DNA of 64,000 nt from Candidatus Dojkabacteria bacterium (GCA_016931155.1 JAFGFJ010000001.1:7050-71049); one strand, 5' to 3'. Counted from the stretch's first letter, positions 14,819 to 64,000 are shown. Numbers and translations are program-made. Notes: generated from the sequence alone by a model not told the origin.

Positions 14819-15895
14819 TCAAACCCCATGCTTGAAGAGCATAACATCACCATCTTTAACAATATATTCTTTTCCTTCAAGCCTCACTTTCCCCTTTTCC
14901 CTGGCTCCTTCCCATCCGCTAAAATCCACAAAGTCTCCATAGCTGACAACATCAGCCGCAATAAATTTTTGCTCAAAGTCAGTATGTATTACTCCCGCCG
15001 CCTGTGGCACTTTCGCTCCTGCAGTTATTGTCCACGCTCTCACTTCCATTGGCCCAGCAGTAAAGAATGAAATAAGACCAAGCATTTTATAAGAAAGCTG
15101 AGTAAGTTTCTCAAAGCCTGATCTTTCAAGACCCAGACCTTCGAGATATTCTTTTTTTTCTTCATCTGAAAGATCAGTGAGTTCTGATTCCATTTTGACA
15201 TCCAGAAATAAGAGTTCACCTTGAAGTTTGGTCAAAAGCTTTTTCATATCTTCGGATTCGTGTTTATTTACCGATTGATTAATGAGATAAATCAAAGGTT
15301 TATCCGTAAGCAGAAATAATTCCTTCCTGAATTTTTTTATTTCCTCTTCTGTACCTTCATATTTAAAATTAAACGCAAGTTTTCCTTCGGCAAGATGATC
15401 AAGCAGACCTTTTGAAAATTCTTTTGTTTTTTCATCCACTTCTCTATCCCTCTCAACTTGTCCCCATTTTCTTTCTACTGCTTCCAAATCTTTGAGTACA
15501 AGTTCCGTTTCCAGGATATCAATATCTGCAAGGGGGTCAACACGATTCTCAACATGAGTGACATCACTTGACTCAAATGCTCTAACAACTTGAACAATAG
15601 CATCTACTTCCCTGATATGAGAAAGAAACTTATTTCCAAGTCCTTCACCTTTGTGTGCCCCCTTCACTAGGCCTGCTATATCAACAAACTTGATAACCGC
15701 AGGAACTTTCTTTTCCGGCTTTACTATTTCTTCAAGTTTGTCGAGACGATCGTCATGAACAGCTACAACACCAACGTTCGGCTCAATCGTATTGAACGGA
15801 TAATTCTCGGCCGGAACCTTGTTTTTTGTAAGGGCATTGAAAAGAGTTGATTTCCCTACGTTTGGAAGTCCAACAATGCCGATTGAAAGAGACAT
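14819..15895 (-). CDS. ychF: Ribosome-binding ATPase YchF (Obg-family GTPase)
   Basis: G1 motif GIVGLPNVGKSTLFNALT, YchF helical insertion, and a C-terminal TGS domain. Confidence 0.85.
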   Translation of the reverse strand: MSLSIGIVGLPNVGKSTLFNALTKNKVPAENYPFNTIEPNVGVVAVHDDRLDKLEEIVKPEKKVPAVIKFVDIAGLVKGAHKGEGLGNKFLSHIREVDAIVQVVRAFESSDVTHVENRVDPLADIDILETELVLKDLEAVERKWGQVERDREVDEKTKEFSKGLLDHLAEGKLAFNFKYEGTEEEIKKFRKELFLLTDKPLIYLINQSVNKHESEDMKKLLTKLQGELLFLDVKMESELTDLSDEEKKEYLEGLGLERSGFEKLTQLSYKMLGLISFFTAGPMEVRAWTITAGAKVPQAAGVIHTDFEQKFIAADVVSYGDFVDFSGWEGAREKGKVRLEGKEYIVKDGDVMLFKHGV

Positions 15896-15945
15896 AAATC
15901 AGAACATAAACTAATTCTTTTTTTCTTGACTGCTGGTCAAGCTTT

Positions 15946-16695
15946 CTACAAACACTCCTTGTCTTCCGAAAGCTCTAAAAGAATATCAGGGGGTTCCACT
16001 CCTAAAGCGTGGTAAAGAGCATTAATCGCATAACCACCAACGGACTGGAGATATTTAAGATACTCTATCGACTTTTCAGGAGCATTAGGTATCATCTCAA
16101 GATCTATACGTATCGGATTATCAACCTCCATCTCAGCCTCCATCTCATCTGGATCCGATAAAACCCTCATAGCATCTTCACGTGACTCAAATCCAAGATG
16201 CAGTAGTACTTTTGCGTTACAACTCTTATCTAAAAGAGTTACCTCTCGACAACCATCTTCATCGTATTTCAGATTTGCCTCAAAGCCTTTTCTCTTAAGC
16301 TCCTCAAGGATAGTTTCTGCTTTTGCGGGTATCTGCCATTGCACTTCACTGTTTTTTTCCTCAGGAGAAAAATAAAAAAAGAATGTAACTTTCCCCCATT
16401 CTCCACTTTCTAGAGAGTAGGCAGCTTTCAACTCGACCAAAATCTGATTTAAAACACTATCATAAACGTCTACCAACCATATCTTAGTTCCAGGAAACAG
16501 CCGTCGCGATTCCCCCCTAAGACACTGCTCTATCTGTTCAGAACCTTCCACAAGAAGTTGATCATGAGTTGAGTCACCACAGTGTGAAGACCATTTTTTG
16601 AGCCAGTCGGCAATCCATCGGGGGTTGGGAATAGATAAACGAAATCCAGTTGCTCCCGGGTCACTCTCGTTTGTAGATCTATATTCATCTTTCAT
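15946..16695 (-). CDS. Hypothetical protein
   Basis: 249-aa ORF with coding-like composition and no recognisable motif. Confidence 0.4.
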   Translation of the reverse strand: MKDEYRSTNESDPGATGFRLSIPNPRWIADWLKKWSSHCGDSTHDQLLVEGSEQIEQCLRGESRRLFPGTKIWLVDVYDSVLNQILVELKAAYSLESGEWGKVTFFFYFSPEEKNSEVQWQIPAKAETILEELKRKGFEANLKYDEDGCREVTLLDKSCNAKVLLHLGFESREDAMRVLSDPDEMEAEMEVDNPIRIDLEMIPNAPEKSIEYLKYLQSVGGYAINALYHALGVEPPDILLELSEDKECL

Positions 16696-43823: not shown

Positions 43824-44879
43824 TCATATAAACTCATCTCCTGTAAGTTTTACTTTCTCGAGGAGAGCAATCTCATCAAGTAAAAGCTCTGTCCCCCTTA
43901 CAACAGCTGTTACAGGATCTTCAGCAATAATCACTGGAGTATCAAGTCTGCTCTCTAAGTACTTATCTATTCCCCGTATCAATGCCCCGCCTCCTACAAC
44001 CGTTATCCCTCTTTCAAGAAGGTCAGAAAGGATTTCGGGTGGGGTCTGCTCTATCGCATCCTTTACAGCCTCAGCGATCTTATCCAGAACCCTCATCATC
44101 GCTTCCCTCATTTCTATACTTGTAACCTTTACGATTTTTGGAAGACCAGTCATAAGATCCCTTCCTTTCATATCTATATCCATCTCTTCCTTCATCGGAT
44201 AAGCAGACCCAATAGCAATCTTTATATCTTCAGCCGATCTGTCACCAATAAGCAGGTTGTATTTATGCCTTGCGTAATTAACTATCTCCTGATCCATTTC
44301 ATCTCCTGCTATTCTCACCGTATTATCAACAACTATGCCCCCTAACGAAATGACTGCTATATCTGTCGTTCCGCCTCCAATATCAATTATCATACTACCT
44401 GACGCATCTTCTATTGGTAGCCTTACCCCGATAGCAGCAGCCATTGGTTCTTCTATTATATAAGCTTTTCTTGCCCCTGCAGAAAGTGCTGCGTCCGCTA
44501 CTGCTCTCCCCTCCACTTCCGTAATAGATGAAGGCACTCCCATAACTACTCTCGGCTTTGGAAGCTTAAATAACTTCGGGTACTCATCATGAACCCTCCT
44601 GATAAAGTAGCGAATCATTGCCTCTGTGGTATCGAAATCGGAAATTACTCCATCACGGAGAGGTCTCACTGCAACAATATTTGAGGGAGTTCTTCCTATC
44701 ATTCTACGTGCCTCAGTCCCTACTGCCAGCACCTGCTTAGTATTTTTGTTGAGTGCCACAACAGAAGGCTCATTGAATACTAACCCCAGTCCTTTTATAG
44801 AAACAAGCGTGCTGGTAGTACCGAGATCCATCCCGATATCATGCGTAACCATGCCCCATATCGAATCCATTAAACTCAT
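43824..44879 (-). CDS. mreB: Rod shape-determining actin homolog MreB
   Basis: Actin-fold phosphate motifs (GMDLGTTSTL, IIDIGGGTTDIAV, VVGGGALIRG) and the MreB consensus. Confidence 0.85.
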   Translation of the reverse strand: MSLMDSIWGMVTHDIGMDLGTTSTLVSIKGLGLVFNEPSVVALNKNTKQVLAVGTEARRMIGRTPSNIVAVRPLRDGVISDFDTTEAMIRYFIRRVHDEYPKLFKLPKPRVVMGVPSSITEVEGRAVADAALSAGARKAYIIEEPMAAAIGVRLPIEDASGSMIIDIGGGTTDIAVISLGGIVVDNTVRIAGDEMDQEIVNYARHKYNLLIGDRSAEDIKIAIGSAYPMKEEMDIDMKGRDLMTGLPKIVKVTSIEMREAMMRVLDKIAEAVKDAIEQTPPEILSDLLERGITVVGGGALIRGIDKYLESRLDTPVIIAEDPVTAVVRGTELLLDEIALLEKVKLTGDEFI

Positions 44880-51278: not shown

Positions 51279-51893
51279 CTATGGTTCTATATCTAGTAGA
51301 TTTTCAAGAAGAGACAATTGCTCAGCCAGTGAACTACTATACTTTTCCTCAATTGATTTACTCAACACTTTACAAAGCTCCTCAGCCGATACTTCTCTGT
51401 AAAAACAGTATTCTTCTTTTACACGCATAGAAGGAATATATGCATAACTCATATTTCCTTTTTCATCCCTAAGTTCTAACATAGCTGAATTGTATTGAGG
51501 TTCCTGCCCAGTGAGGCGTGAGGCTAAATCAGTCAAGTAAAGCCTGGGATGCTCCCCAATATCTCTCCCACTCCCATTTGTATCTTCTCTTGTTATTTGT
51601 ATTTCGATTAGCCCAGGTAAACCATCATTGAGATACAAACTGATAAATGCACCTGGAAAAGAGGCAGAAACAGGTTTACATTTTTTAACCGTATGATTTC
51701 TGATACTTATTGCATTAATTTCTAATCCTCCAGAGACTTGATATGAATCTGGATCTAAATCTGGTTCTGAACTATTGTTTTCTCCGAAAAAGCAAGCACT
51801 TATCACCACAGGAGGTTTAAAATATTTTGTTGTTATACCAAAATCATCTATTGTTCTATAACCTTCTTTTGTGCCATTTATTTGATCCTTCAT
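51279..51893 (-). CDS. Hypothetical protein encoded antisense between rplA and rplJ
   Basis: 204-aa ORF with protein-like composition. It occupies the position where an rplJ leader/promoter normally lies. No motif was identified. Confidence 0.4.
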   Translation of the reverse strand: MKDQINGTKEGYRTIDDFGITTKYFKPPVVISACFFGENNSSEPDLDPDSYQVSGGLEINAISIRNHTVKKCKPVSASFPGAFISLYLNDGLPGLIEIQITREDTNGSGRDIGEHPRLYLTDLASRLTGQEPQYNSAMLELRDEKGNMSYAYIPSMRVKEEYCFYREVSAEELCKVLSKSIEEKYSSSLAEQLSLLENLLDIEP

Positions 51894-53272: not shown

Positions 53273-53302
53273 GCCTACCAAGCAATAAGCTAAAAAACAG
53301 AA

Positions 53303-53336
53303 CCCTGATGTACAAAGCGTCAGGGTTTTTTGTTTC
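53303..53336 (+). terminator. Rho-independent terminator downstream of rplL
   Basis: aaccctgatgtacaaagcgtcagggttttttgtttctt: a 7-bp GC-containing stem plus a U-tract. Confidence 0.65.
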
Positions 53337-53388: not shown

Positions 53389-54093
53389 ATGAAAGAAATC
53401 ACGTTGTTCCTTTTAGAAAACGGTGTTAGAGAGGAAACCTTGATACTGCTTTTGATGCTTCCGATTATAAGTACAGTTATAGGATTTGGCAGGCATTTCG
53501 TCGGGATAAGAACAATTGGAATATACACCGCAATCGTCCTGACTTATGCTTTCTATCTACTGGGCATCACTGAGACTAACGGACCAAGCAATATTCTTCT
53601 GGGAATGAGACTCGGAATCGGCATAACGGTTGCAGTATATGCCATTGCTTCCATTGGACAGCTAATGACAAAAAAAATCAGGCTTCATTATCAACCAAAG
53701 CTTGCAATTATTATCTCAATAATTGCAATACTTGCATTTATTGCTCTACTTCTTTTTGCAAAATTTGGACAAGTGACTATTACAAGAGTAAATGCTATAG
53801 CAATTATTTTAATAGTAACAACATCTGAACAGTTTATAAGCAGTTTTGTTAAGAAAAATTTTTCCTCTGCGGTGCTTTTAAGCTTTGAGACAATGATAGT
53901 TTCTCTGATTTGTTATTCTCTGATTTCATGGCCAAGCCTCCAAAATTTCATACTTACCTACCCTATCGTTGCTACTCTGGCAATCCCTTTCAATCTGATT
54001 ATAGGCAAATTCACAGGACTTAGACTTAAAGAACACCTGCGCTTCAGAGATTTACTAAATAATAATGAGCCTGGCAACGATTCTCAACAATAG
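53389..54093 (+). CDS. Seven-TM membrane protein, first gene of the ATP-grasp island. Resembles the 7TM module that accompanies RimK-related ligase systems.
   Basis: Seven hydrophobic helices are predicted by eye and there is no soluble domain. Its stop overlaps the start of the next gene by 29 nt. Confidence 0.55.
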   Translation: MKEITLFLLENGVREETLILLLMLPIISTVIGFGRHFVGIRTIGIYTAIVLTYAFYLLGITETNGPSNILLGMRLGIGITVAVYAIASIGQLMTKKIRLHYQPKLAIIISIIAILAFIALLLFAKFGQVTITRVNAIAIILIVTTSEQFISSFVKKNFSSAVLLSFETMIVSLICYSLISWPSLQNFILTYPIVATLAIPFNLIIGKFTGLRLKEHLRFRDLLNNNEPGNDSQQ

Positions 54094-55516
54094 AAAAAAA
54101 ATTCTCGGTCTAAACGAGAGGAACCTTAAGTATATCCGACCTTTCAATAAAAAAAAGGCTAAATTGATTGCGGATAATAAGCTCCTTACCAAGAAATATC
54201 TGGAGAAGGCAGGAATCCCTATTCCGAAACTTCTGGCAGTCATTAAAAATGAAGAAGAGCTTGAAAATTTCGATTGGGATTCACTGCCAAAAAGCTTTGT
54301 TGTAAAGCCTGTTATGGGACATGAAGGAGGCGGAATAGAAATTTTTTACAACAAAGATAACAAGGGAAGATGGATAAGGGCGGACAAAAGTAAAGTAAAT
54401 CTGTCGGAGCTTAAGGCATACATCTTTGACATTCTGGATGGGAAATACTCATTGCACAATACACCAGATATGGCCTTTTTCGAAGAAAGAGTAAAACTAC
54501 ATAAAAGATTTAGATACCACACCTACAAAGGAGCCCCGGATGTTCGCATAAATATCTTCAATAATATTCCTATCATGGCATATATCAGGTTTCCAACAAG
54601 AGAATCCCGGGGAAAAGCGAATATGGCAATGGGAGCAATTGGTACAGGAATAGATATGGCTAGCGGAGTTACCACCACTTCAGTTTACGGAAAAGGGAGT
54701 GGAGGAAGAGGAACACCGATTGAATGTGTACCTGGTACGAAAATCAGGCTTGCAGGACTTAAGATTCCTTATTGGAATAAAATGCTGCGTTATGCCATTG
54801 AAGTTCAAAAAATTACAAAACTGGGTTATGCCGCAGTCGACTTTCTTTTGGACAGGGATCTTGGACCACTTGTAGTTGAAATAAATGCCCGCCCGGGTCT
54901 TTCCGGGCAGATTGCAAATCAAGATGGACTTGCCTGGAGGCTCAAAAAAGTCGCAGGACTCAAAATAAAGACCGTAGAGAAAGGTGTGAGACTGGCAAAA
55001 GATCTTTTTGGAGGCGAAATTGAAGAGGAAATCGAAAGTATCTCGGGAAAAGAAGTAATAGGGATTTATGAGACCGTCATACTCATAGGAAAAGAAGGTA
55101 AAGAGCTCGAGAGAAAAGCAAAGATAGATACAGGAGCTGATAGTACTTCTATTGATATAGAACTGATAAAACAGCTTGGATATGAAGATCTGGTGAAAGA
55201 GATTGAGTCTAAAGCTATTCCAGATAATATGAATAGAGACGAAGGACTTGAGCTTGCCAGAAAACTTGAGGCAGATCTTTTGCCGAAATATCCAGAAATT
55301 GCTTATCTGGCATATATAAAGTCCAGTCATGGGACAAGTGTAAGACCGAGTATAAAGATTTCTTTAAGGCTGGGAGATACACAGTTTGAAACTACGGCAA
55401 CAATTTATGATAGAAGTAAATTAACCTACCCCGTAATCGTAGGGAGAAAGTCTCTTTCAAGGTTCTTGGTCGATCCAACAAAAACTCGACCCTTCAGCGG
55501 AGAACAAAAAAAATAA
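54065..55516 (+). CDS. ATP-grasp ligase (RimK-related / sugar-transfer-associated type) fused to a C-terminal retropepsin-like aspartic peptidase domain (DTGA)
   Basis: ATP-grasp motifs FVVKPVMGHEGGGIEIF, DVRINIF and AAVDFLLDRDLGPLVVEINARPGLSG. The C-terminal ~150 aa carry KIDTGADSTSIDIEL (a clan AA D-T-G-A active-site signature) and ...VIVGRKSL. Confidence 0.65.
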   Translation: MSLATILNNRKKILGLNERNLKYIRPFNKKKAKLIADNKLLTKKYLEKAGIPIPKLLAVIKNEEELENFDWDSLPKSFVVKPVMGHEGGGIEIFYNKDNKGRWIRADKSKVNLSELKAYIFDILDGKYSLHNTPDMAFFEERVKLHKRFRYHTYKGAPDVRINIFNNIPIMAYIRFPTRESRGKANMAMGAIGTGIDMASGVTTTSVYGKGSGGRGTPIECVPGTKIRLAGLKIPYWNKMLRYAIEVQKITKLGYAAVDFLLDRDLGPLVVEINARPGLSGQIANQDGLAWRLKKVAGLKIKTVEKGVRLAKDLFGGEIEEEIESISGKEVIGIYETVILIGKEGKELERKAKIDTGADSTSIDIELIKQLGYEDLVKEIESKAIPDNMNRDEGLELARKLEADLLPKYPEIAYLAYIKSSHGTSVRPSIKISLRLGDTQFETTATIYDRSKLTYPVIVGRKSLSRFLVDPTKTRPFSGEQKK

Positions 55517-55534
55517 TTTTTATAGAGATATAGG

Positions 55535-56443
55535 ATGGTTTCGAATTTATTGTTTATTACATCAACCCTAAAATACAATACATATACCGACAGACAGTTT
55601 TTGACTGAGGCAAAAAATCTGGGGTTAAATGTACTTGCCCTCAACCCAAACGCATTTTCTTATTCAGTGAATAGATCAAATAATTTCATAATATGGAACA
55701 AGGATAAAGAGTTTCATGTACCTCTAGATTCAATAGTCTACAGAAAGTCTATAAGTAAAGCTGGAGTTGGTTTAGAAGATATTCTAAAAAGGTATGGAGC
55801 AACTGGATTTGAAGAAAATCATACTAAGAAAAAAATCAAAGGTATGGAGAAATTTAGTGACTATGTAGCATATGCGGAGGATAATGTAAAAATTCCAAAC
55901 TCATATCTATTAACTAATAAGAATCAAACCACTTATGCAATAGATTATTTTGATGGAAAGTTTCCATTAATAGTGAAAAAAATATCTGGTACCCACGGTA
56001 TTGGAATATTTGTTGCAGAAAGCAAAAGGGCACTTTTACCAATTGTGGAATATCTATTGAATGAAGGAGAACAATCTCCAATAATCATTCAAGAATTCAT
56101 TGAAGCTTCAGAGGGGAAAGACATAAGAATTATTGTTTTGGATGGAAAAGTAGTCAGTGCAGTATTAAGAGATAATACGGGCAAAGACTTTAGATCAAAT
56201 ATTTATCAAGGAGCAAGTCCCAAGCTTATTGAACTCACCCCAGAACAGGAAAAGATAGCTATAAATGCCGCAAAGGCAGTAGGGTTAGAATTTGCCGGTG
56301 TAGATGTGCTTTATGCCAATGAAGGATACGCAATTACTGAGGTCAACTCGCCATGTGATTTTAGTTTTGTTGAACAGACAACAAAGGTTCCCGTAACAAA
56401 AATGCTGATCGAGTATTTAATTAACAAGGCTTCAAATAAATAA
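55535..56443 (+). CDS. rimK: RimK-family alpha-L-glutamate ligase-like ATP-grasp enzyme
   Basis: PLIVKKISGTHGIGIFV, DIRIIVLDGKVV and RSNIYQGASPKLIELTPEQEKIAINAAKAVGLEFAGVDVLYANEGYAITEVNSPCDF are collinear with the RimK C-terminal signature. Confidence 0.7.
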   Translation: MVSNLLFITSTLKYNTYTDRQFLTEAKNLGLNVLALNPNAFSYSVNRSNNFIIWNKDKEFHVPLDSIVYRKSISKAGVGLEDILKRYGATGFEENHTKKKIKGMEKFSDYVAYAEDNVKIPNSYLLTNKNQTTYAIDYFDGKFPLIVKKISGTHGIGIFVAESKRALLPIVEYLLNEGEQSPIIIQEFIEASEGKDIRIIVLDGKVVSAVLRDNTGKDFRSNIYQGASPKLIELTPEQEKIAINAAKAVGLEFAGVDVLYANEGYAITEVNSPCDFSFVEQTTKVPVTKMLIEYLINKASNK

Positions 56444-56466
56444 TTTACGTTGAGAATAATCACGAC

Positions 56467-57417
56467 ATGAAAATACTAGTGCTTTCTACAAGAAAATCTT
56501 CCTCATTCTCTAGCAAGCAAAATGAACTGCTTTATAGAAAATGGGCCGTATACGGTCAGTCCAAAGGCCATGTTATTGCTCTCTCAGGAATAGACTATTT
56601 TGATGAAGTTTCTTTTTCCAAAGCATTCAGTTGGGACAAAAACGGGAACAAAATAGAAGAAACAAATTTTGCTCCTGATGTTATTTATTTAAAAGTTGTG
56701 AGCAGTAAAATATTTGAGAATTACGGTAAACTAAGACTAATCACTTCAAAATTTCCTGCCGTAAATTCTTTGGATTTCGTAATAAGTCTCGAAAGCAAGG
56801 TAAATCAGAGCTTAATGTTTAAAGAATATTTGCCCGAGACTTTTATAGTTACCAATTCCCACCAAATTGAAGAGATATTAAATTCAAATGACAAAGACTA
56901 TTTGTTAAAACCTGATTTATCTACTGGAGGACAAAACATATTGTTCCTCAGAAAGAACAAATACCCTAGAGACATTAGCCATGCTTTTCTAGTCCAGGAA
57001 ATGATAGACAATACCAAAGGTACCCCAGGCATAACAGATGGAAGGCACGACATGCGCTTTATGTTTGTGGGTGGAGAGCTGAAATACGCATTGCTTCGAA
57101 AACCAAAGGGAGATTCATTTTTTGCAAATGCTGCAAAAGGGGGCTCAACTCAGATTCTTGATGCAAAAAAGATAGATAAAGACATCATGAAACTACCGCT
57201 TGAAGTAGCAAAAATAATTCTTTCAAAATGGGGAAAAGATAATATTTTTACAGTGGACGTGATTGTAGGTAAAGGCGAAAAGGTTTACCTTATGGAGGTA
57301 AATACGTTCCCTGGAATTTCCTATATTGACGAATATATGCAATTTACCATGTTCGACTCTTACTTTAATCTATTTTCAAAAATTATTGATTCATATGCAA
57401 ATAAAACCTCAAAGTGA
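56467..57417 (+). CDS. ATP-grasp domain protein (RimK/YheCD-like), third ligase paralog
   Basis: YLLKPDLSTGGQNILFL, FLVQEMID, HDMRFMFVGGELKYALLR, KVYLMEVNTFPGIS (the E-x-N Mg-binding motif). Confidence 0.6.
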   Translation: MKILVLSTRKSSSFSSKQNELLYRKWAVYGQSKGHVIALSGIDYFDEVSFSKAFSWDKNGNKIEETNFAPDVIYLKVVSSKIFENYGKLRLITSKFPAVNSLDFVISLESKVNQSLMFKEYLPETFIVTNSHQIEEILNSNDKDYLLKPDLSTGGQNILFLRKNKYPRDISHAFLVQEMIDNTKGTPGITDGRHDMRFMFVGGELKYALLRKPKGDSFFANAAKGGSTQILDAKKIDKDIMKLPLEVAKIILSKWGKDNIFTVDVIVGKGEKVYLMEVNTFPGISYIDEYMQFTMFDSYFNLFSKIIDSYANKTSK

Positions 57418-58396
57418 AAAATTCAATGCTGATCTTTATCTTTCTGCAGCAGAAGAGCTTGGACTAAAATCTGAAGTCCTAAATGAAAGAGTCGGCTTCT
57501 GCAGAATTTATACAGACAATAATGAGCTCTACATAAAGAACACAAGTCTCAGCTGTAATGATATGGTTGCAATGAGCTTTGCTATGGACAAAAATCTCTC
57601 CCTTGATATTCTAGGAAAAGCAGGAATACCTGTACCAAAACAAGAACTTTTCACAGCAGATGAAGAAGCTGAACCGGGAGACCCTATCAATAGAACTCCA
57701 ATACTCGAGTATGCCAAATCCCATTTCCCACTCGTGGTCAAACCACTGAAGGGGGCAGGAGGAAAAGGAGTTTTCATTGCAGTAAATTCACTTGATGAAG
57801 TAAATTTAGCACTCAATGAAATAGAAAGGCTAAAATACCAGGATGTACTTATTGAAAATTATGTCAAAGGTAAAGACTATCGCATACTAGTTGCCAACGG
57901 GAAAGTAGTTGATATTTTGGAGAGGATACAGGCTTTTGTAATAGGAAATGGGAAAAAGACAGTAAGCGAGTTGATAAAAGAAAAAAATAAAATTCGAGAA
58001 GCAATGAGAGTAAATCCTGTCAAAGTTGATGACAAACTACATAACCATTTGTCGAAACAGTCTAGGTCGGTATCAAATATACCGGCAGAAGGAGAAAAAG
58101 TAGTACTCAGACCAAATTGTAACTTTTCAGAAGGGGGAGAAACACACAGAATAGATATACAAATTATAAAGCAGGACGACATAGATATGTTTCTTAAGGT
58201 CGCAAAAGTAAGCCGGCTAGGACTTTGTGCAATAGATTATATTACCCCAGATATCACTAAATCTTATAAAGAGGTCCAGACAATAATAAATGAAATCAAC
58301 GGTAGTCCAAGCATGGACATACATTATTACGCAGATACGAAGGAAGATCTTCAGGTGATAAAGGATATTCTTATTTCTATTTTAAAGGTTAGCTGA
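57395..58396 (+). CDS. Standalone cyanophycin-synthetase-like ATP-grasp domain protein. The likely start is MQIKPQ at 57395; the annotated ORF starts at 57326 and overlaps the previous gene.
   Basis: Collinear with the CphA ATP-grasp domain: ILGKAGIPVPKQE, VVKPLKGAGGKGVFIAV, GKDYRILVANGKVVDILERIQAFVIGNGKKTVSELI, AEGEKVVLRPNCNFSEGGE, GLCAIDYI. There is no Mur-ligase-like C-terminal domain. Confidence 0.65.
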   Translation: MQIKPQSEKFNADLYLSAAEELGLKSEVLNERVGFCRIYTDNNELYIKNTSLSCNDMVAMSFAMDKNLSLDILGKAGIPVPKQELFTADEEAEPGDPINRTPILEYAKSHFPLVVKPLKGAGGKGVFIAVNSLDEVNLALNEIERLKYQDVLIENYVKGKDYRILVANGKVVDILERIQAFVIGNGKKTVSELIKEKNKIREAMRVNPVKVDDKLHNHLSKQSRSVSNIPAEGEKVVLRPNCNFSEGGETHRIDIQIIKQDDIDMFLKVAKVSRLGLCAIDYITPDITKSYKEVQTIINEINGSPSMDIHYYADTKEDLQVIKDILISILKVS

Positions 58397-60535
58397 TAAA
58401 TGCTCTGTAAGTGTTTTTAATATCTTAACTCTAACATCCTCTAAAATAATTTCACTTGGTCTCATCTCCGGTAGAACTGCTTTGGACCTATCAAAAAGTC
58501 CAACCTTGTTAAGCTCGGCAAGGGTTTGCAAACTAACTCCACCGATAGCCAATAAATCAGACATTCCTCTATTCGACAACTCTTCAGCAACAAGATTCTG
58601 TTCAATATATGCAAGGGGCTTACTATTGGTAGTATAAGAACTCCAGTTCCCAAATATCCCGGCTCCAGTAAATATTCTTCTAGTATGTTTTACTGCCTCT
58701 TTTACCCCTTCCATTTTTTTCTCTTCGGAAGGAGAAGCTATCCCTTCCATATAATTATCATAGAAGGCCTTTGCACAAGCTTTAAAACTTCTGCCTTTCG
58801 TTCTTTCTTGCACAGCCCTAAAAAGACCTTTACTAACTTTTGCCTCTTGCCCTAGGTATCTTTTCTTAGCTTCTCTTTCCCATGCTATTGCCCCTGCCTC
58901 AGCATTGACTGAACTCCTATCGGTTCCAATATTTTCTGTAATTGCTAAACCAATCCTTGCTTTATTCTCGTGTTGCAGGATATGCATAGTTTCATGATCA
59001 GAAATTGCTATTACTCCTGAAGGTGCAGTTGAGCCAAGTTTCCTAATCTCTCCAGAAGGAATAAAAATTGTCCCTTTTCTGCTATTAACAGAAATTATTG
59101 TTACCCTAGGACTAATAATAACCTGCCACTTGTTATCATCTGCTCTTCCATTCCTATCTGAACTATAGACTGAAGTTGCATCAGTTTCAGGGTCAATTTC
59201 AATAGTTTCATTGGAATCAGTGTTATATTGAGTTTGGGTACTGCTTAAAAGTTCATATCTTCTCAAAACCTTCTTCCAAAGTCCCTCTATTTCCGATGCA
59301 TTCATTTGTATATTTACAATTATTTCTCTCAATTTCGCTGCTGACTCATCACCATATCTCCGCACAAGACTCAGCAGTGACCCGTTCCCCAAAACTTCGG
59401 TCGGAATTAATTCTTTCAAGACAAAAACTTCCTTGGTTAGGTTAGACAACCCCTCAGGAGAAAGAGTATTAGAGAGTTCAGAGTATAAACTACTTGAGAA
59501 CTCACTAGTGTTTTCTCCATCACGGTGAGCAATAGCCAATAGAGTTTGATTCAACGGAGGAATTTCTGTTACCTGACTTGCAGATTTTTTCCTCTTAGAT
59601 AATTCTACAGCTTCATTACTTATTGGCCCATAATTCCCACTGGAAAGTGCCTCTCCTGCTCCTTCTTTAAATCTGTCTAACCGGGCAAGTTTTCTAAGAG
59701 TGGGTGTTTGAGTTTTTGTTTCATCTATGCCTATACCAAAAAAACCTTCTTTCATTACATCAAACAACTCTTGATCTCTCCACCCAGAAGCTTGTTGCTG
59801 TCTTTCAAAATTGATAAATAGTGGGTAAAGATTTGCTATCATTTCATTAGTCCTAAGTGCATGAATGTCTAACAAGGCAAGTTTCGCTTTTGATAAATCC
59901 GAACCATCTTTCTTCAATTCCGCTCTGTATATTTTGTGATAGCGCTTAAGAGCACGGAGCTTTTCAACTTTTTCTGCCAGATTCAATGGATTCTTTATTA
60001 CAACAATTTTGGTTGGATTTCTAATTGATCTTACATCTGAGAAACCACGCCTACGAAAGGCTTCAGTAAACTGATCACCCATGTATTTAGAACTGGCACC
60101 TGAGATTTTGTCTACAACTTGCGTTTCTACCTTTGAATAATCGAAAGAACTCAAAAAAGAAATTATCGCTTCCCGGTCATTAACTTCAGGATCCAATCCT
60201 AAATTATCAACTAAAAGTTTCCTTCCTTCATCTTTCAGAAAATAATCTACATAAAGTTCCACTAAATTTATCTTTATCTTCCATATATGCTCAAGTCCTT
60301 CTGCTGTTACTATCTCCACAACCTCACCCTGATCATTTCTTCTTTCAATCTGAAGTGTTTCTGACCTGGTTAAATTATCTTCAAAACTGAGTGCTTCTGC
60401 TCTTTGATCCGCTGACAACTGTATTTCAGGAGGTCCTGCAATAGCTTCCACATAGGCGCCTATCTTAACCCCTGCTCTTTCCGGAAAAGGGTACCTGGAA
60501 GATTCTGCGATGCCTGATTCTCTTTCCTGTGTCAT
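58382..60535 (-). CDS. Large (717 aa) putative zinc metallopeptidase with an HExxH motif, convergent on the ATP-grasp island and co-oriented with the upstream mreB paralog
   Basis: The motif ISDHETMHILQHEN (H-E-x-x-H) sits in the C-terminal third, followed by Glu-containing segments and a large alpha-helical N-terminal region. No other family could be assigned by eye. Confidence 0.45.
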   Translation of the reverse strand: MTQERESGIAESSRYPFPERAGVKIGAYVEAIAGPPEIQLSADQRAEALSFEDNLTRSETLQIERRNDQGEVVEIVTAEGLEHIWKIKINLVELYVDYFLKDEGRKLLVDNLGLDPEVNDREAIISFLSSFDYSKVETQVVDKISGASSKYMGDQFTEAFRRRGFSDVRSIRNPTKIVVIKNPLNLAEKVEKLRALKRYHKIYRAELKKDGSDLSKAKLALLDIHALRTNEMIANLYPLFINFERQQQASGWRDQELFDVMKEGFFGIGIDETKTQTPTLRKLARLDRFKEGAGEALSSGNYGPISNEAVELSKRKKSASQVTEIPPLNQTLLAIAHRDGENTSEFSSSLYSELSNTLSPEGLSNLTKEVFVLKELIPTEVLGNGSLLSLVRRYGDESAAKLREIIVNIQMNASEIEGLWKKVLRRYELLSSTQTQYNTDSNETIEIDPETDATSVYSSDRNGRADDNKWQVIISPRVTIISVNSRKGTIFIPSGEIRKLGSTAPSGVIAISDHETMHILQHENKARIGLAITENIGTDRSSVNAEAGAIAWEREAKKRYLGQEAKVSKGLFRAVQERTKGRSFKACAKAFYDNYMEGIASPSEEKKMEGVKEAVKHTRRIFTGAGIFGNWSSYTTNSKPLAYIEQNLVAEELSNRGMSDLLAIGGVSLQTLAELNKVGLFDRSKAVLPEMRPSEIILEDVRVKILKTLTEHLSANL

Positions 60536-60562: not shown

Positions 60563-61567
60563 CTAGCTCACCCTCAAACTCCTCTTTATAATTTCAAGAT
60601 TCTGTATTGCTTCGGCAATTCCTTTTATAACAGCATAAATCGGCTCATCGGCAACATAAACAGGAACACCCGTTGCCCTTGTAAATAGTTCATCCATCCC
60701 CCTTAACTGTGCAGTACCTCCTGTCAACACAATTCCACGATCGATAATATCTGAAGCAAGCTCTGGAGGAGTATCTTCAAGAACCTTTTTTATCGACCCG
60801 ATAATCTGATTGAGAGTAAGCTTTATGCCTTCGGCGATATCATTTGAATTGACAACAATTGAGGTTGGAAGCCCTGATGATGCATCACGTCCTTTCACCT
60901 CCATTTCAAGCGGCTTTTCCATATTCATAGCACTTCCTATCTGAATTTTTGCTTTCTCTGCCATTTGCTCACCTATCACAAGATTGAGTTTCTTCCTCAC
61001 CGTATTCATAATTGCCTCATTCACCGCATCCCCTGCAACACGCTTCGAATCAAATCTCACAATACCGTTCATAGAAATAACAGCAATTTCTGAAGTCCCT
61101 CCCCCCATATTTACTATCATGTTCCCGGAAGATGTGCTTATTGGCATTCTTGCTCCAATTGCCGCAGCGATCGACTCCGGGATAAGATAAACCCTGCCTG
61201 CCCCGGCTGAGGATACCGCTTCTATTACAGCTCTTTCCTCCACAGAAGTAACACCAGAAGGAACACTAATCATAACCTCGGGTTTGAAAAGCCTTGATCT
61301 TCCAATAGCTCTATCAAGAAAAGCCTTAAGAAGAGCCTCAGTGAGCTTATAACTTGCAATAACTCCTTGTCTCAAAGGTCTTCTCGCAACAATACCTGTA
61401 GGCACTTTCCCCAGCATTTCCCTCGCCTCCTTCCCAACTGCAAGAATTTTCTTTTCTTCGACAGAAACAGTTACAACAGTAGGCTCTTCGATAACAATTC
61501 CTTTACCCTCAACCCAGACAATTGAGTTTGCCGTACCAAGGTCAATTCCAATTTTTTTGCCCGCCAT
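60563..61567 (-). CDS. Second MreB/Mbl-like actin homolog
   Basis: IGIDLGTANSIVWV, VPSGVTSVEERAVIEA, MIVNMGGGTSEIAVIS, VLTGGTAQLRGMD. Full actin-fold phosphate and adenosine motifs; ~45% identical by eye to the mreB at 43824-44879. Confidence 0.8.
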   Translation of the reverse strand: MAGKKIGIDLGTANSIVWVEGKGIVIEEPTVVTVSVEEKKILAVGKEAREMLGKVPTGIVARRPLRQGVIASYKLTEALLKAFLDRAIGRSRLFKPEVMISVPSGVTSVEERAVIEAVSSAGAGRVYLIPESIAAAIGARMPISTSSGNMIVNMGGGTSEIAVISMNGIVRFDSKRVAGDAVNEAIMNTVRKKLNLVIGEQMAEKAKIQIGSAMNMEKPLEMEVKGRDASSGLPTSIVVNSNDIAEGIKLTLNQIIGSIKKVLEDTPPELASDIIDRGIVLTGGTAQLRGMDELFTRATGVPVYVADEPIYAVIKGIAEAIQNLEIIKRSLRVS

Positions 61568-61627: not shown

Positions 61628-63094
61628 ATGAGCAAGTTTAGGACAATAGTAATTGTTGTGGGAGTAGTTTTGATTTTCACCCTCATCGCAGCTCTGTCAA
61701 TCATCATAGCACAAGGAGGAAAACTCACTCCGGATAGAGGTTTTGTTAAAACGGGAATCATCCGTATAACATCTAAACCTCAAGATGTGAAAGTATATGT
61801 AGATGGAGAAGAAAAGTCGCTCCAGGATAAACAGATTGGAGGACTTGAAGACAGAGAGTATCTCATAACAATCTCCAAGGAAGGTTATTCCACATGGGAA
61901 AGAACCGTCAAGGTCGAACCAGGGATTGTAATAGAAATCTTTGCACAACTTTTTCCCACTTCTCTAAATCTCACCGAAGTCACTAAAACAAATATCGATA
62001 AAGTTTTTTATTCTAAAGATGGACAGTACGCGGTTTACGTGGTCAAAGATTCTGAGATTGGCGGAGACCTGGGAATATGGAAGCTCCGTCTGTCCAAGCC
62101 GACAATTACCATCGTGGGAAACAATAAGCCGATAAAGCTCTCAAATATCACTAGTACAGTCAGAGAAATAGTGAATGCAGATTACGAAATTGAACTGTCA
62201 CCGGACAACCGATTTATTATGATACACAATACTGACACAAATGAGTATTTTATTCTTAATGCTGAACTTTATAACGAGCCAGAAGAAAGTCTCAACAAAG
62301 ATCTCGGTTTTGTGCCGGACAGGGTTGACTGGTTTACTGATTCTACATCGCTTGTTGTAGCAAGGGATAGTACACTTTTTGAATACAATCTTCGAGAGGA
62401 AACCTCCTCACTGATTTCGCTCACTCCAGGCAAGAGACCTGTTTACTCAGTAAACGAAAGTAGAATAATTTTATACAATCACAACAAAAAAACCTTTGAG
62501 TTTTACGATGGAGAAAAAAGCAAGAGCTTGATTGTAGAGAACATTCATTTGCCAGTTGATATTGAGCAGATTCAGGTTTCCGAACTCACTCCAAACCTGT
62601 TAATCTTCGAAACAAACAATACATTTTATTATCTGAACGTAGAGAAAAGCTTTATTAGTGAGATCGGAAAAGATCTGGAATTTGTAGAACTTTCAAGGAG
62701 CGGAAAATCTGCTCTTTTCCTGAAAGAAAAAACCTTGATAAGCTATGAAGTTCGAGAAATTATCAGTGAAAGAAGATTTGAGTCAAAAATTTTTGAAATC
62801 CTGAAGAATTTTGACAAGTCAGTCCAAAAAGCCCGGTGGAGCACTGACTCCGAACACATCGTCATTTCAGGAACAAGAGATAAACTCAAAACAATAGCAA
62901 TATTCGACAAGGAGGGAGAAAATATGAATGAGCTGATAGCAGATAAAAGATTCCAGAACGATTTCTTCAAAGTACCCGCCAATTCTTCTTCGTTGTTTCT
63001 TCTTCTAAATGATGAAGTCAAAGAAAATGGAGAGGATCACATTTTGAGAACAAACCTTTATGAGCTCGACCTTGAAAAACCCTCTGTGAAATAA
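61628..63094 (+). CDS. Membrane-anchored PEGA-domain protein with a C-terminal beta-propeller-like region
   Basis: N-terminal TM (IVIVVGVVLIFTLIAALSIIIA). PEGA-like segment (GIIRITSKPQDVKVYVDGEEKS...YLITISKEGYSTWERTVKVEPG). The rest is repetitive and beta-rich. Confidence 0.5.
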   Translation: MSKFRTIVIVVGVVLIFTLIAALSIIIAQGGKLTPDRGFVKTGIIRITSKPQDVKVYVDGEEKSLQDKQIGGLEDREYLITISKEGYSTWERTVKVEPGIVIEIFAQLFPTSLNLTEVTKTNIDKVFYSKDGQYAVYVVKDSEIGGDLGIWKLRLSKPTITIVGNNKPIKLSNITSTVREIVNADYEIELSPDNRFIMIHNTDTNEYFILNAELYNEPEESLNKDLGFVPDRVDWFTDSTSLVVARDSTLFEYNLREETSSLISLTPGKRPVYSVNESRIILYNHNKKTFEFYDGEKSKSLIVENIHLPVDIEQIQVSELTPNLLIFETNNTFYYLNVEKSFISEIGKDLEFVELSRSGKSALFLKEKTLISYEVREIISERRFESKIFEILKNFDKSVQKARWSTDSEHIVISGTRDKLKTIAIFDKEGENMNELIADKRFQNDFFKVPANSSSLFLLLNDEVKENGEDHILRTNLYELDLEKPSVK

Positions 63095-63536: not shown

Positions 63537-64000
63537 TTATTTTATTCTGCCTATCTTTCCAGCAAAGCCCATGGCTTTATGATAATTAACACTATATTCA
63601 TCAAAAATTTCACTCTTTTCAAACCAAAGGGCAATCTCGAATTCAGCCTCCTCTGGAGTACCCGAAGCATGCACAAGGTTATAAAATGGTCGCATAAAAT
63701 CATTTGCCAAATCGGCATTGTCAGAGGAATAATCTCCTCTAATTGTACCTGGAAGTGCAACTGAGGGATTTGTCTCACCTACAAGTTTTCTTCCTATCTT
63801 AACAGCGCCAGGACCTTCAAAGATCATCGCAAGCACTGGTCCTGCAGTAAGATACTCAACATTCCACTGCTTAATCATTTTGCCTATTTCAATTGCCTTA
63901 TCAGTTCCGAGTCTTTCTTTTGGGTCAATACCCTTCTCTTTGTATTCAGCCAGTGTTCTGTTTCCAACTTTCTCAAGCCATTCTTTTGTCGCAGGATAGT
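63537..64000 (-). CDS. ndk: Nucleoside diphosphate kinase; the 5' end of the gene runs past the window end
   Basis: GPVLAMIFEGPGAVKIGRKLVGETNPSVALPGTIRGDY...NLVHASGTPEEAEFEIALWF matches the NDK core (NIIHGSD/EIALWF). The frame is still open at position 64000. Confidence 0.8.
   Translation of the reverse strand, partial: YPATKEWLEKVGNRTLAEYKEKGIDPKERLGTDKAIEIGKMIKQWNVEYLTAGPVLAMIFEGPGAVKIGRKLVGETNPSVALPGTIRGDYSSDNADLANDFMRPFYNLVHASGTPEEAEFEIALWFEKSEIFDEYSVNYHKAMGFAGKIGRIK

Follow-up and report, generated by a model that had tools for sequence, protein, structure and literature searches.

Introduction

A three-gene system comprising a TIGR02291 ligase, a seven-transmembrane (7TM) inactive-transglutaminase protein and a retropepsin was reportedly predicted by Iyer and coworkers in 2009. 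The operon of this kind in Pseudomonas aeruginosa was named RloABC in 2025 (Lormand et al., 2025; PMC12239564). Its genes stand in the order A-B-C: RloA is a retropepsin secreted via a signal peptide, RloB is a 7TM protein with an extracytoplasmic inactive transglutaminase domain and RloC is an ATP-grasp ligase; RloB has been reported to be 96% proteobacterial (PMC12239564). RloA and RimB cleave runs of at least eight Glu residues by means of K46, D48, R114 and R137, and when all RloA peptidases are lost, the resulting toxicity can be relieved by deletion of rloB or rloC (PMC12239564), from which it follows that the peptidase removes a product of the ligase and the membrane protein. Furthermore, Rlo mutants show cell-shape defects and sensitivity to cell-wall antibiotics (PMC12239564). 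Here, we analyse a 64-kb stretch of DNA from Candidatus Dojkabacteria (WS6, Patescibacteria), referred to as the window and numbered from its first letter, in which six open reading frames (ORFs) form a related locus: the 7TM protein A, the ligase–peptidase fusion B, the ligases C, D and E, and the HExxH protein F.

Two further enzyme families are close to parts of this locus. RimK attaches Glu in alpha linkage to a C-terminal carboxylate and can also produce free poly-alpha-Glu. The cyanophycin synthetase CphA1 is built of N, G and M domains, of which the G domain lengthens the backbone of the polymer at the C-terminal end. RimB trims poly-Glu tails and stimulates poly-alpha-Glu synthesis by RimK, and an active RimB–RimK hybrid exists (Little et al., 2025; PMC11957791). 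In general, tandem peptide ligases act successively on one product (PMC4431377).

Judged from sequence, A–B is a candidate-phylum (CPR) variant of the RloABC/TIGR02291 system, and one that was previously undescribed. The initial annotation of the locus had recognized its kinship to the system of RimK-related ligase, retropepsin and 7TM-transglutaminase that is now RloABC, and had known of no described equivalent; the kinship is borne out, and our search of the literature found no description of such a system in Patescibacteria. We propose, with a probability of about one in two, that a membrane-docked set of ligases builds, and a peptidase trims, an acidic peptide, with A–B as the core of a CPR system of the Rlo/Rim type. 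This conserved core is joined to a hypervariable cargo slot, of which C, D, E and F represent one state.

Materials and methods

One genome per species was scanned, which gave 47 loci with B homologues (labelled L001 and so on) from Dojkabacteria, Roizmanbacteria, Microgenomates and several evidently mislabelled metagenome-assembled genomes; the window proteins were mapped onto all of them. Upstream sequence is present in 46 of the 47 loci, and A–B adjacency was counted over those 46. Pfam and NCBIfam profile cutoffs were used as thresholds for domain assignment. Homologues were sought by a k-mer search over 5.8 billion proteins, by a sequence search of the PDB and in the 47 loci. The topology of A was derived from hydropathy and the positive-inside rule.

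Results and discussion

The A–B core

All six ORFs annotated initially at 53389-60535 are present:

53389..54093, plus strand: A, RloB-like 7TM protein without a transglutaminase domain, 234 aa (PF14402, NCBIfam RloB)
54065-55516, plus strand: B, whole fusion ORF, 483 aa
54065..55057, plus strand: B, N-terminal part, RloC-like ATP-grasp amidoligase (ATPgrasp_ST / TIGR02291-like)
55058..55516, plus strand: B, C-terminal part, RloA/RimB-like retropepsin domain (K353-x-D355-T-G-A, R427, D449-R450)
55535..56443, plus strand: C, RimK-family ATP-grasp protein of the alpha-L-glutamate ligase type (TIGR00768, PDB RimK)
56467..57417, plus strand: D, divergent orphan ATP-grasp protein, weakly YheCD-, GshB- or RimK-like (Pfam)
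57395..58396, plus strand: E, stand-alone ATP-grasp protein resembling the cyanophycin synthetase G domain (TIGR02068, PDB 7wac)
58382..60535, minus strand: F, putative gluzincin metallopeptidase (HExxH-x27-E) with a MATCAP-like catalytic fold, 717 aa

The ligase domain of B scores 194.5 bits against ATPgrasp_ST (PF14397; cutoff 31.4) and is structurally closest to ArgX/LysX and RimK. It is 36.5% identical to the ligase of a canonical operon on a Legionella plasmid, where a peptidase is followed by a 508-aa inactive-transglutaminase 7TM protein and then by the ligase. Residues 332-474 of B match the Zn_protease/RimB-like retropepsin model (37.7 bits, cutoff 27). B is 100% identical to a protein in a metagenome-assembled genome of Candidatus Dojkabacteria. 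Homologues of B fall into more than 120 clusters with 56-75% identity and the same fusion architecture, and an alignment of 14 sequences shows no variation at DTGA, K353, R427, D449-R450 and G460-R461. By alignment, K353, D355, R427 and R450 appear equivalent to K46, D48, R114 and R137 of RloA; the K-x-DTGA motif and the poly-Glu-binding Arg residues of the RloA-type retropepsin are shared by B.

The PF14402 (7TM_transglut) model matches A at 50.7 bits (cutoff 25; E 2e-13) over profile positions 56-247, which are the 7TM part only, and the NCBIfam RloB model does so with its C-terminal 7TM region, positions 312-507. The transglutaminase domain of RloB was not found in A by these profiles, and the 7TM module indeed lacks it, as had been claimed. 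Hydropathy reveals seven hydrophobic blocks, and the N-terminus is predicted to lie outside and the C-terminal tail inside. All 46 homologues have 224-251 aa. The conserved residues of A (R35, G39, H100, Y101, K104, K156 and G206-F219, a GRFTGLRLxEYxRF-like C-terminal tail) are all located in segments predicted to be cytoplasmic, namely the K/R-rich loops and the tail; docking of a cytoplasmic partner therefore fits better than an extracellular function.

A is directly 5′ of B in all 46 loci. An RloC-like ATP-grasp ligase (PF14397/TIGR02291-like), an RloB-type 7TM protein (PF14402) and an RloA-type retropepsin are adjacent here as in RloABC, and all three modules are held in one operon by two genes that overlap by 29 nt. 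Nevertheless, there are clear differences between the two systems. The first is the missing domain of A. The second concerns the peptidase, which is joined to the ligase's C-terminus and lacks a signal peptide. Gene order differs as well, with a B-like gene followed by a C+A-like fusion; one to four extra amide ligases follow B; the peptidase type is interchangeable in the Dojkabacteria version; and the hosts are Patescibacteria, whereas those of RloABC are mostly proteobacterial. In the RimK/RimB and RimBK systems, a cytoplasmic ATP-grasp Glu ligase is likewise physically coupled to a poly-Glu-cutting retropepsin, and C is a true RimK-family protein. However, the peptidase of RimBK is N-terminal to a RimK-type ligase, whereas in B a ligase of the RloC/ATPgrasp_ST type is N-terminal to the peptidase; the Rim systems also have no 7TM partner.

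The interchange of peptidases is seen in two relatives (L032:9968-12337 and L035:9986-12343), in which B homologues of 786-790 aa have lost the retropepsin and carry a QEGLA/MATCAP domain instead: the RloC-like ligase (TIGR02291, 252 bits) is followed by a TIGR02421 match at residues 461-781 (E 1.5e-36). This domain swap indicates that the pairing of ligase and peptidase is a selected functional unit, and it is the strongest evidence for such a unit in this analysis. We know of no description of an RloC-like ligase fused to a QEGLA/MATCAP domain, and these fusions provide a concrete prokaryotic context for the MATCAP family. In Photobacterium damselae, a QEGLA-motif gene beside a gene annotated as 'GshB' (A0J47_RS17020-17025) is up 27-fold at low salinity, and rimK is up 52-fold (PMC10308900), which hints that QEGLA/MATCAP–ligase pairs respond to hypo-osmotic conditions, like Rlo.

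The accessory ligases

The initial annotation had counted four ATP-grasp ligases, to be doubted if fewer than three of the four were confirmed by profile searches; B, C, D and E all exceed Pfam ATP-grasp thresholds. When these four were aligned with four relatives, the Arg, the ATP-binding Lys and the D/E/N Mg ligands were all invariant, which makes the four ligase domains look catalytically competent.

C scores 146.7 bits against Pfam RimK and 163.1 bits against TIGR00768, where the cutoff is 143.4, and matches the RimK structures of E. coli and Pseudomonas (PDB 5zct/4iwx) with E 4e-31. Its score and its ATP-grasp catalytic residues place it in the RimK family (TIGR00768). The level of RimK proper (the S6--L-glutamate ligase, PRK10446) is not reached, at 121.3 bits vs 331, and rpsF is not within the 64-kb window. 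D passes three Pfam cutoffs, those of ATPgrasp_YheCD (44.4 bits, cutoff 26.8), GSH-S_ATP (39.9 bits) and RimK (34.3 bits); no homologue of D was found in the k-mer search, the PDB or the 47 loci. E scores 48.6 bits against Pfam RimK, matches positions 168-467 of the cyanophycin synthetase model TIGR02068 (E 2e-55) and aligns over the whole G domain of CphA1 (PDB 7wac, 7lg5; E 3e-37 with 7wac). It had been described as a CphA ATP-grasp domain lacking the Mur-ligase half, and this is correct: the match is confined to the G domain, the N and M domains are not matched (188 bits vs a cutoff of 850 for the full enzyme), and the window operon contains no Mur-ligase gene that could stand in for M.

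Two other identities were considered and rejected for these ligases. One was the graspetide macrocyclase of peptides that are made by ribosomes and modified after translation (RiPPs), since RiPP-maturase models give 26-33 bits vs cutoffs of 350-425; the intergenic gaps of 18-23 nt leave no room for a graspetide precursor ORF. The other was an ordinary cell-wall ligase in a peptidoglycan neighbourhood, a possibility that the initial annotation had singled out for checking: all Ddl and MurE scores are far under their cutoffs, and there are no mur or fts genes in the operon.

A variable slot downstream of B

The surroundings of the six ORFs are as follows:

53299..53329, plus strand: intrinsic terminator of rplL, 13-bp stem and T-run
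60563..61567, minus strand: mreB2, second MreB paralogue, right border of the variable slot (PF06723, E 2e-120)
61628..63094, plus strand: gene of a PEGA-domain membrane protein, divergent from mreB2 and conserved with it (PF08308, E 7e-10; synteny)

The clean terminator that had been claimed behind rplL exists and sets the rplJL unit apart from the ligase operon. The A/B overlap and the gaps B-C (18 nt) and C-D (23 nt) stand as annotated; a gap of about 23 nt between D and E does not, for the two genes overlap by 23 nt, the ATG of E at 57395 being backed by the N-termini of its homologues. These overlaps and short gaps support A–E as a single co-directional ligase operon, which E leaves in a convergent overlap of 15 nt with F.

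The operon had further been regarded as an island inserted where rpoB follows rplL. This has to be abandoned, as rplL-A-B is the standard order: NusG-L11-L1-L10-L7/L12-A-B is found in 33 of the 47 loci (mostly Dojkabacteria). Together with the constant adjacency of A and B, this identifies A–B as an inherited core and not as an insertion. A mobile island was rejected too, because its edges are without tRNA, integrase, flanking repeat or composition break. Convergent mreB2 and the PEGA gene are located downstream of B in 21 loci, all from Dojkabacteria, whereas lineages outside the Dojkabacteria (L033, L036-L048) have kept A–B with neither rplL nor mreB2 adjacent.

Between B and mreB2, the interval ranges from 0 to about 5 kb. 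B abuts mreB2 in about 12 loci (e.g. L003, L005, L006, L010-L012, L014, L034 and L056). In 21 loci, including the non-Dojkabacteria loci L036, L037, L039, L042, L045 and L048 with their different flanks, B is directly followed at a distance of up to about 100 nt by a co-oriented ligase gene (ATP-grasp or Mur-type), and 32 such ORFs after B fall into one ATP-grasp cluster with C and E. The 'doubled' ligase complement is accordingly no special feature of the window, an extra ligase directly 3′ of B being present in about half of the relatives. Of the five- to six-gene arrangement whose conservation had been in question, A–B is conserved and the full set is not, C, D, E and F being variable.

The cargo of the slot differs among relatives. 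It includes RimK-like ligases, CphA-G-like ligases (E-like genes in L007, L013, L016, L020, L021, L028 and L055), LAL-type ATP-grasp_4 ligases (L027, L028) and a stand-alone Mur-ligase resembling the CphA M domain (L013 7811-9079; TIGR02068 positions 481-861, E 4e-75; similar genes in L008, L017, L028 and L055). Split G and M genes, amounting to a CphA-like pair and usually accompanied by a RimK-like gene, occur 3′ of B in L013:5960-9079, L055:2217-5419, L008, L017 and L028, which suggests cyanophycin-like polymer synthesis in some Dojkabacteria. In L055, the closest relative with a long contig (B 63% identity), the order is A-B-Mur-like-RimK-like-ATP-grasp-mreB2-PEGA. A DUF3541 gene (PF12060, E 2e-50; L016:10638-11594 and L021:12062-13018) lies between CphA-G-like and RimK-like ligases, at the position equivalent to D in the window. 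Other cargo comprises a methyltransferase (L023), GT2 and Wzy_C genes (L024), and a GNAT, a GT2 and a true MATCAP/QEGLA peptidase (L022; PF08014 E 4e-27, TIGR02421 E 5e-26). D and F are without counterpart among the 47 loci. An E-like gene of WS6 OLB20 appears broken into three ORF fragments (L028:14063-15058) beside an intact copy (15061-16092) and is probably a decaying duplicate.

A rival reading is that C, D and E are chance occupants of a permissive slot, functionally separate from A–B. They would then make a small cytoplasmic di- to tetrapeptide, for example a compatible solute of the glutathione or NAGGN type, or a store resembling cyanophycin, and F would be an unrelated housekeeping metallopeptidase. 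For E there are further matches to NAGGN synthetase (108 bits) and to the C-terminal domain of GshAB (143 bits), and for C and D weak ones to GshB; some genomes have unrelated cargo (the methyltransferase and glycosyltransferases), A–B stands alone in about 12 loci and F-family genes occur in unrelated contexts. Nevertheless, chance is hard to credit when a ligase directly follows B in 21 loci of several lineages with otherwise different neighbours, and the spacing of 18-23 nt and the overlaps argue for both transcriptional and translational coupling with B. We consider a separate pathway improbable.

Another rival reading is peptide chemistry at the cell envelope. Amino acids might be attached to peptidoglycan precursors, to cross-bridges or to a surface glycopolymer (teichuronopeptide), with A acting on a lipid-linked intermediate. 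In enterococci, an ATP-grasp D-Asp ligase adds its amino acid to peptidoglycan precursors/cross-bridges. The slot of relatives holds GT2 glycosyltransferases, a Wzy_C O-antigen-ligase-like protein, GNAT and Mur-ligase-fold enzymes, and it is flanked by mreB2 and the PEGA-domain gene; PF14397 carries the name 'sugar-transfer associated', and the antibiotic sensitivity of Rlo mutants (PMC12239564) would fit as well. However, B, C, D and E are all under the Ddl and MurE thresholds, and the Mur-fold genes of relatives fit the CphA M domain better than MurE, with roughly double the score (253 vs 124 bits for L013 7811-9079). With no mur, fts or pbp genes in the operon and the canonical mreBCD-PBP2 cluster elsewhere, envelope chemistry of this kind is distinctly unlikely.

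The metallopeptidase F

F contains HETMH at residues 514-518. The k-mer search returned F only, but an exhaustive HMMER search retrieved 363 family representatives, typically of about 600 aa, so F is not an orphan. H514, E515, H518, E546 and G548 are invariant in the family, giving the gluzincin signature HExxH-x27-E. F has no Pfam, NCBIfam or PDB sequence match, and the MATCAP/QEGLA models (PF08014, TIGR02421) do not detect it even at E 10; only one of 30 family members tested against them reaches E 0.004. Foldseek gave nothing significant for F, its best hits being M32 carboxypeptidases (E 0.06). In hhalign comparisons with Dojkabacteria QEGLA domains, HExxH is placed on HExxxH and EAGA on EEGLA at a probability of only 3%. 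F differs from MATCAP/QEGLA proteins further by an extra N-terminal region of about 450 aa and by the unrelated gene contexts of its family. It is best described as a distant MATCAP-like gluzincin, linked to the operon by position and analogy only. The idea that the peptidase modules provide trimming activities is plausible.

The locus could also serve reversible tagging, in which a hetero-peptide tail is added to the C-terminus of a specific protein and removed again by the retropepsin and F. Candidate targets are MreB2, S6 or L7/L12, or the PEGA protein, comparable to S6 for RimK/RimB and tubulin for TTL/MATCAP. C is a true member of the RimK family; the structural neighbours of the B ligase domain, ArgX/LysX and RimK, are all modifiers of protein C-termini; the tubulin detyrosinase MATCAP is the best fold match of F; and in L032 and L035 the ligase carries a fused QEGLA/MATCAP domain. 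Dojkabacteria have kept the synteny with rplJL and mreB2, and the Pseudomonas Rlo mutants have altered cell shape (PMC12239564). This synteny is missing, however, in the other CPR lineages with A–B (L033, L036-L048) and may be inherited gene order only. Moreover, mreB2 is convergent and not co-transcribed, no window protein has an acidic C-terminus, a cytoplasmic target leaves the 7TM partner unexplained, and the CphA-type G and M ligases of relatives point to free polymers. Protein tagging is, on balance, unlikely.

A bolder form of the same idea is a prokaryotic 'tail code', in which up to four membrane-docked ATP-grasp ligases would write, and interchangeable erasers (the retropepsin or MATCAP-like gluzincins) would remove, a hetero-peptide tail on a protein of the cytoskeleton or ribosome, such as a dedicated MreB2 paralogue or L7/L12. 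The first MreB paralogue lies at 43824-44879 (minus strand) in a canonical mreB-mreC-PBP2 cluster that is located upstream of the ribosomal genes (also in L056:1-3963); mreB2 beside the ligase operon thus encodes an additional MreB, which is paired with the PEGA protein. Adjacency to mreB2 is confined to Dojkabacteria and absent in other CPR lineages with A–B. The analogy between MreB and the tubulin code is speculation, and we regard the tail code as a long shot. If true, it would be a bacterial counterpart, and possibly the evolutionary source, of the eukaryotic TTL/TTLL-MATCAP tubulin cycle.

Proposed mechanism

We return to the proposal that the locus makes and trims an acidic peptide. The RloC-like domain of B would activate a terminal carboxylate with ATP and extend the C-terminus of a peptide or protein with acidic amino acids, of which alpha-linked Glu is the most likely. 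Its retropepsin domain, as a dimer, would cut poly-acidic stretches, by which the chain is trimmed or released. The conserved loops and tail on the cytoplasmic side of A would dock the enzyme at the membrane, and A may also hand the product on to the envelope. C, E and the orphan D would be accessory ligases, co-transcribed with A–B, that extend or diversify the chain; E, being of the CphA G-domain type, would extend it at the C-terminal carboxylate. F may be an additional trimmer of the carboxypeptidase type, and the product would be a strain-specific acidic oligo- or poly-amino-acid. The sequence itself shows the domain identities, the arrangement as an operon, the intact catalytic motifs, the constancy of A–B, the changing cargo and the exchange of the peptidase. 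In this scheme, the Glu/Asp chemistry, the alpha linkage, the order of action, the acceptor and the roles of A and F are what we infer from the likenesses described above.

Several observations weigh against the scheme. Acidic runs and acidic C-terminal tails are absent from all ORFs of the 64-kb window, which thus yielded no acceptor candidate. The score of B against TIGR02291, 241.7 bits, is under the NCBIfam equivalog cutoff of 314.2. By its sequence the B peptidase is cytoplasmic, unlike the secreted RloA, and the Pseudomonas model, in which the product is exported and then cleaved outside the cell, may not apply here. The roughly 12 relatives with A–B alone mean that C, D and E can be dispensed with, and these three could belong to an unrelated pathway. 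F had been put forward as a dedicated partner of the ligases, which does not agree with the five F-homologue contexts examined, none of which has an ATP-grasp gene. Finally, we know of no product, acceptor or activity for any RloC-type ligase, that of Pseudomonas included.

Flanking genes

Some features of the surrounding genes were recorded in passing. A 204-aa ORF on the minus strand (51279-51893), between rplA and rplJ and opposite to them, is a genome-specific insertion in the conserved ribosomal-protein cluster; it has no Pfam or NCBIfam match and no counterpart in the 47 related loci. L7/L12 (52799-53272, plus strand) is extended N-terminally by a low-complexity stretch of about 20 aa, which is missing in most relatives and shorter in L013. 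A connection between the C-terminus of L7/L12 and the ligase cargo was considered and rejected: the protein ends with Glu in L013 and L016 and with Lys in the window, L008 and L028, without a consistent pattern. Two tandem nucleoside-diphosphate-kinase genes follow 3′ of the PEGA gene (window 63537-64000, minus strand; L001:14704-15952) and are kept in L055 and L056.

Conclusions

Before this Patescibacteria version, RloABC had been considered essentially proteobacterial. The conservation of a transglutaminase-less, fused version across a class of ultra-small Patescibacteria implies that a 7TM protein, a ligase and a peptidase make up the minimal functional unit, and that the periplasmic modules are dispensable. 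That four ATP-consuming ligases are kept in a tiny, biosynthetically poor genome suggests a product of importance, probably in osmotic or envelope homeostasis. The natural variation of the slot, with its RimK-, CphA-G-, CphA-M- and LAL-type ligases, and the swap of the peptidase could help to identify the elusive product of RloABC. With its function inferential, the Dojkabacteria variant offers comparative leverage on the unsolved RloABC system.

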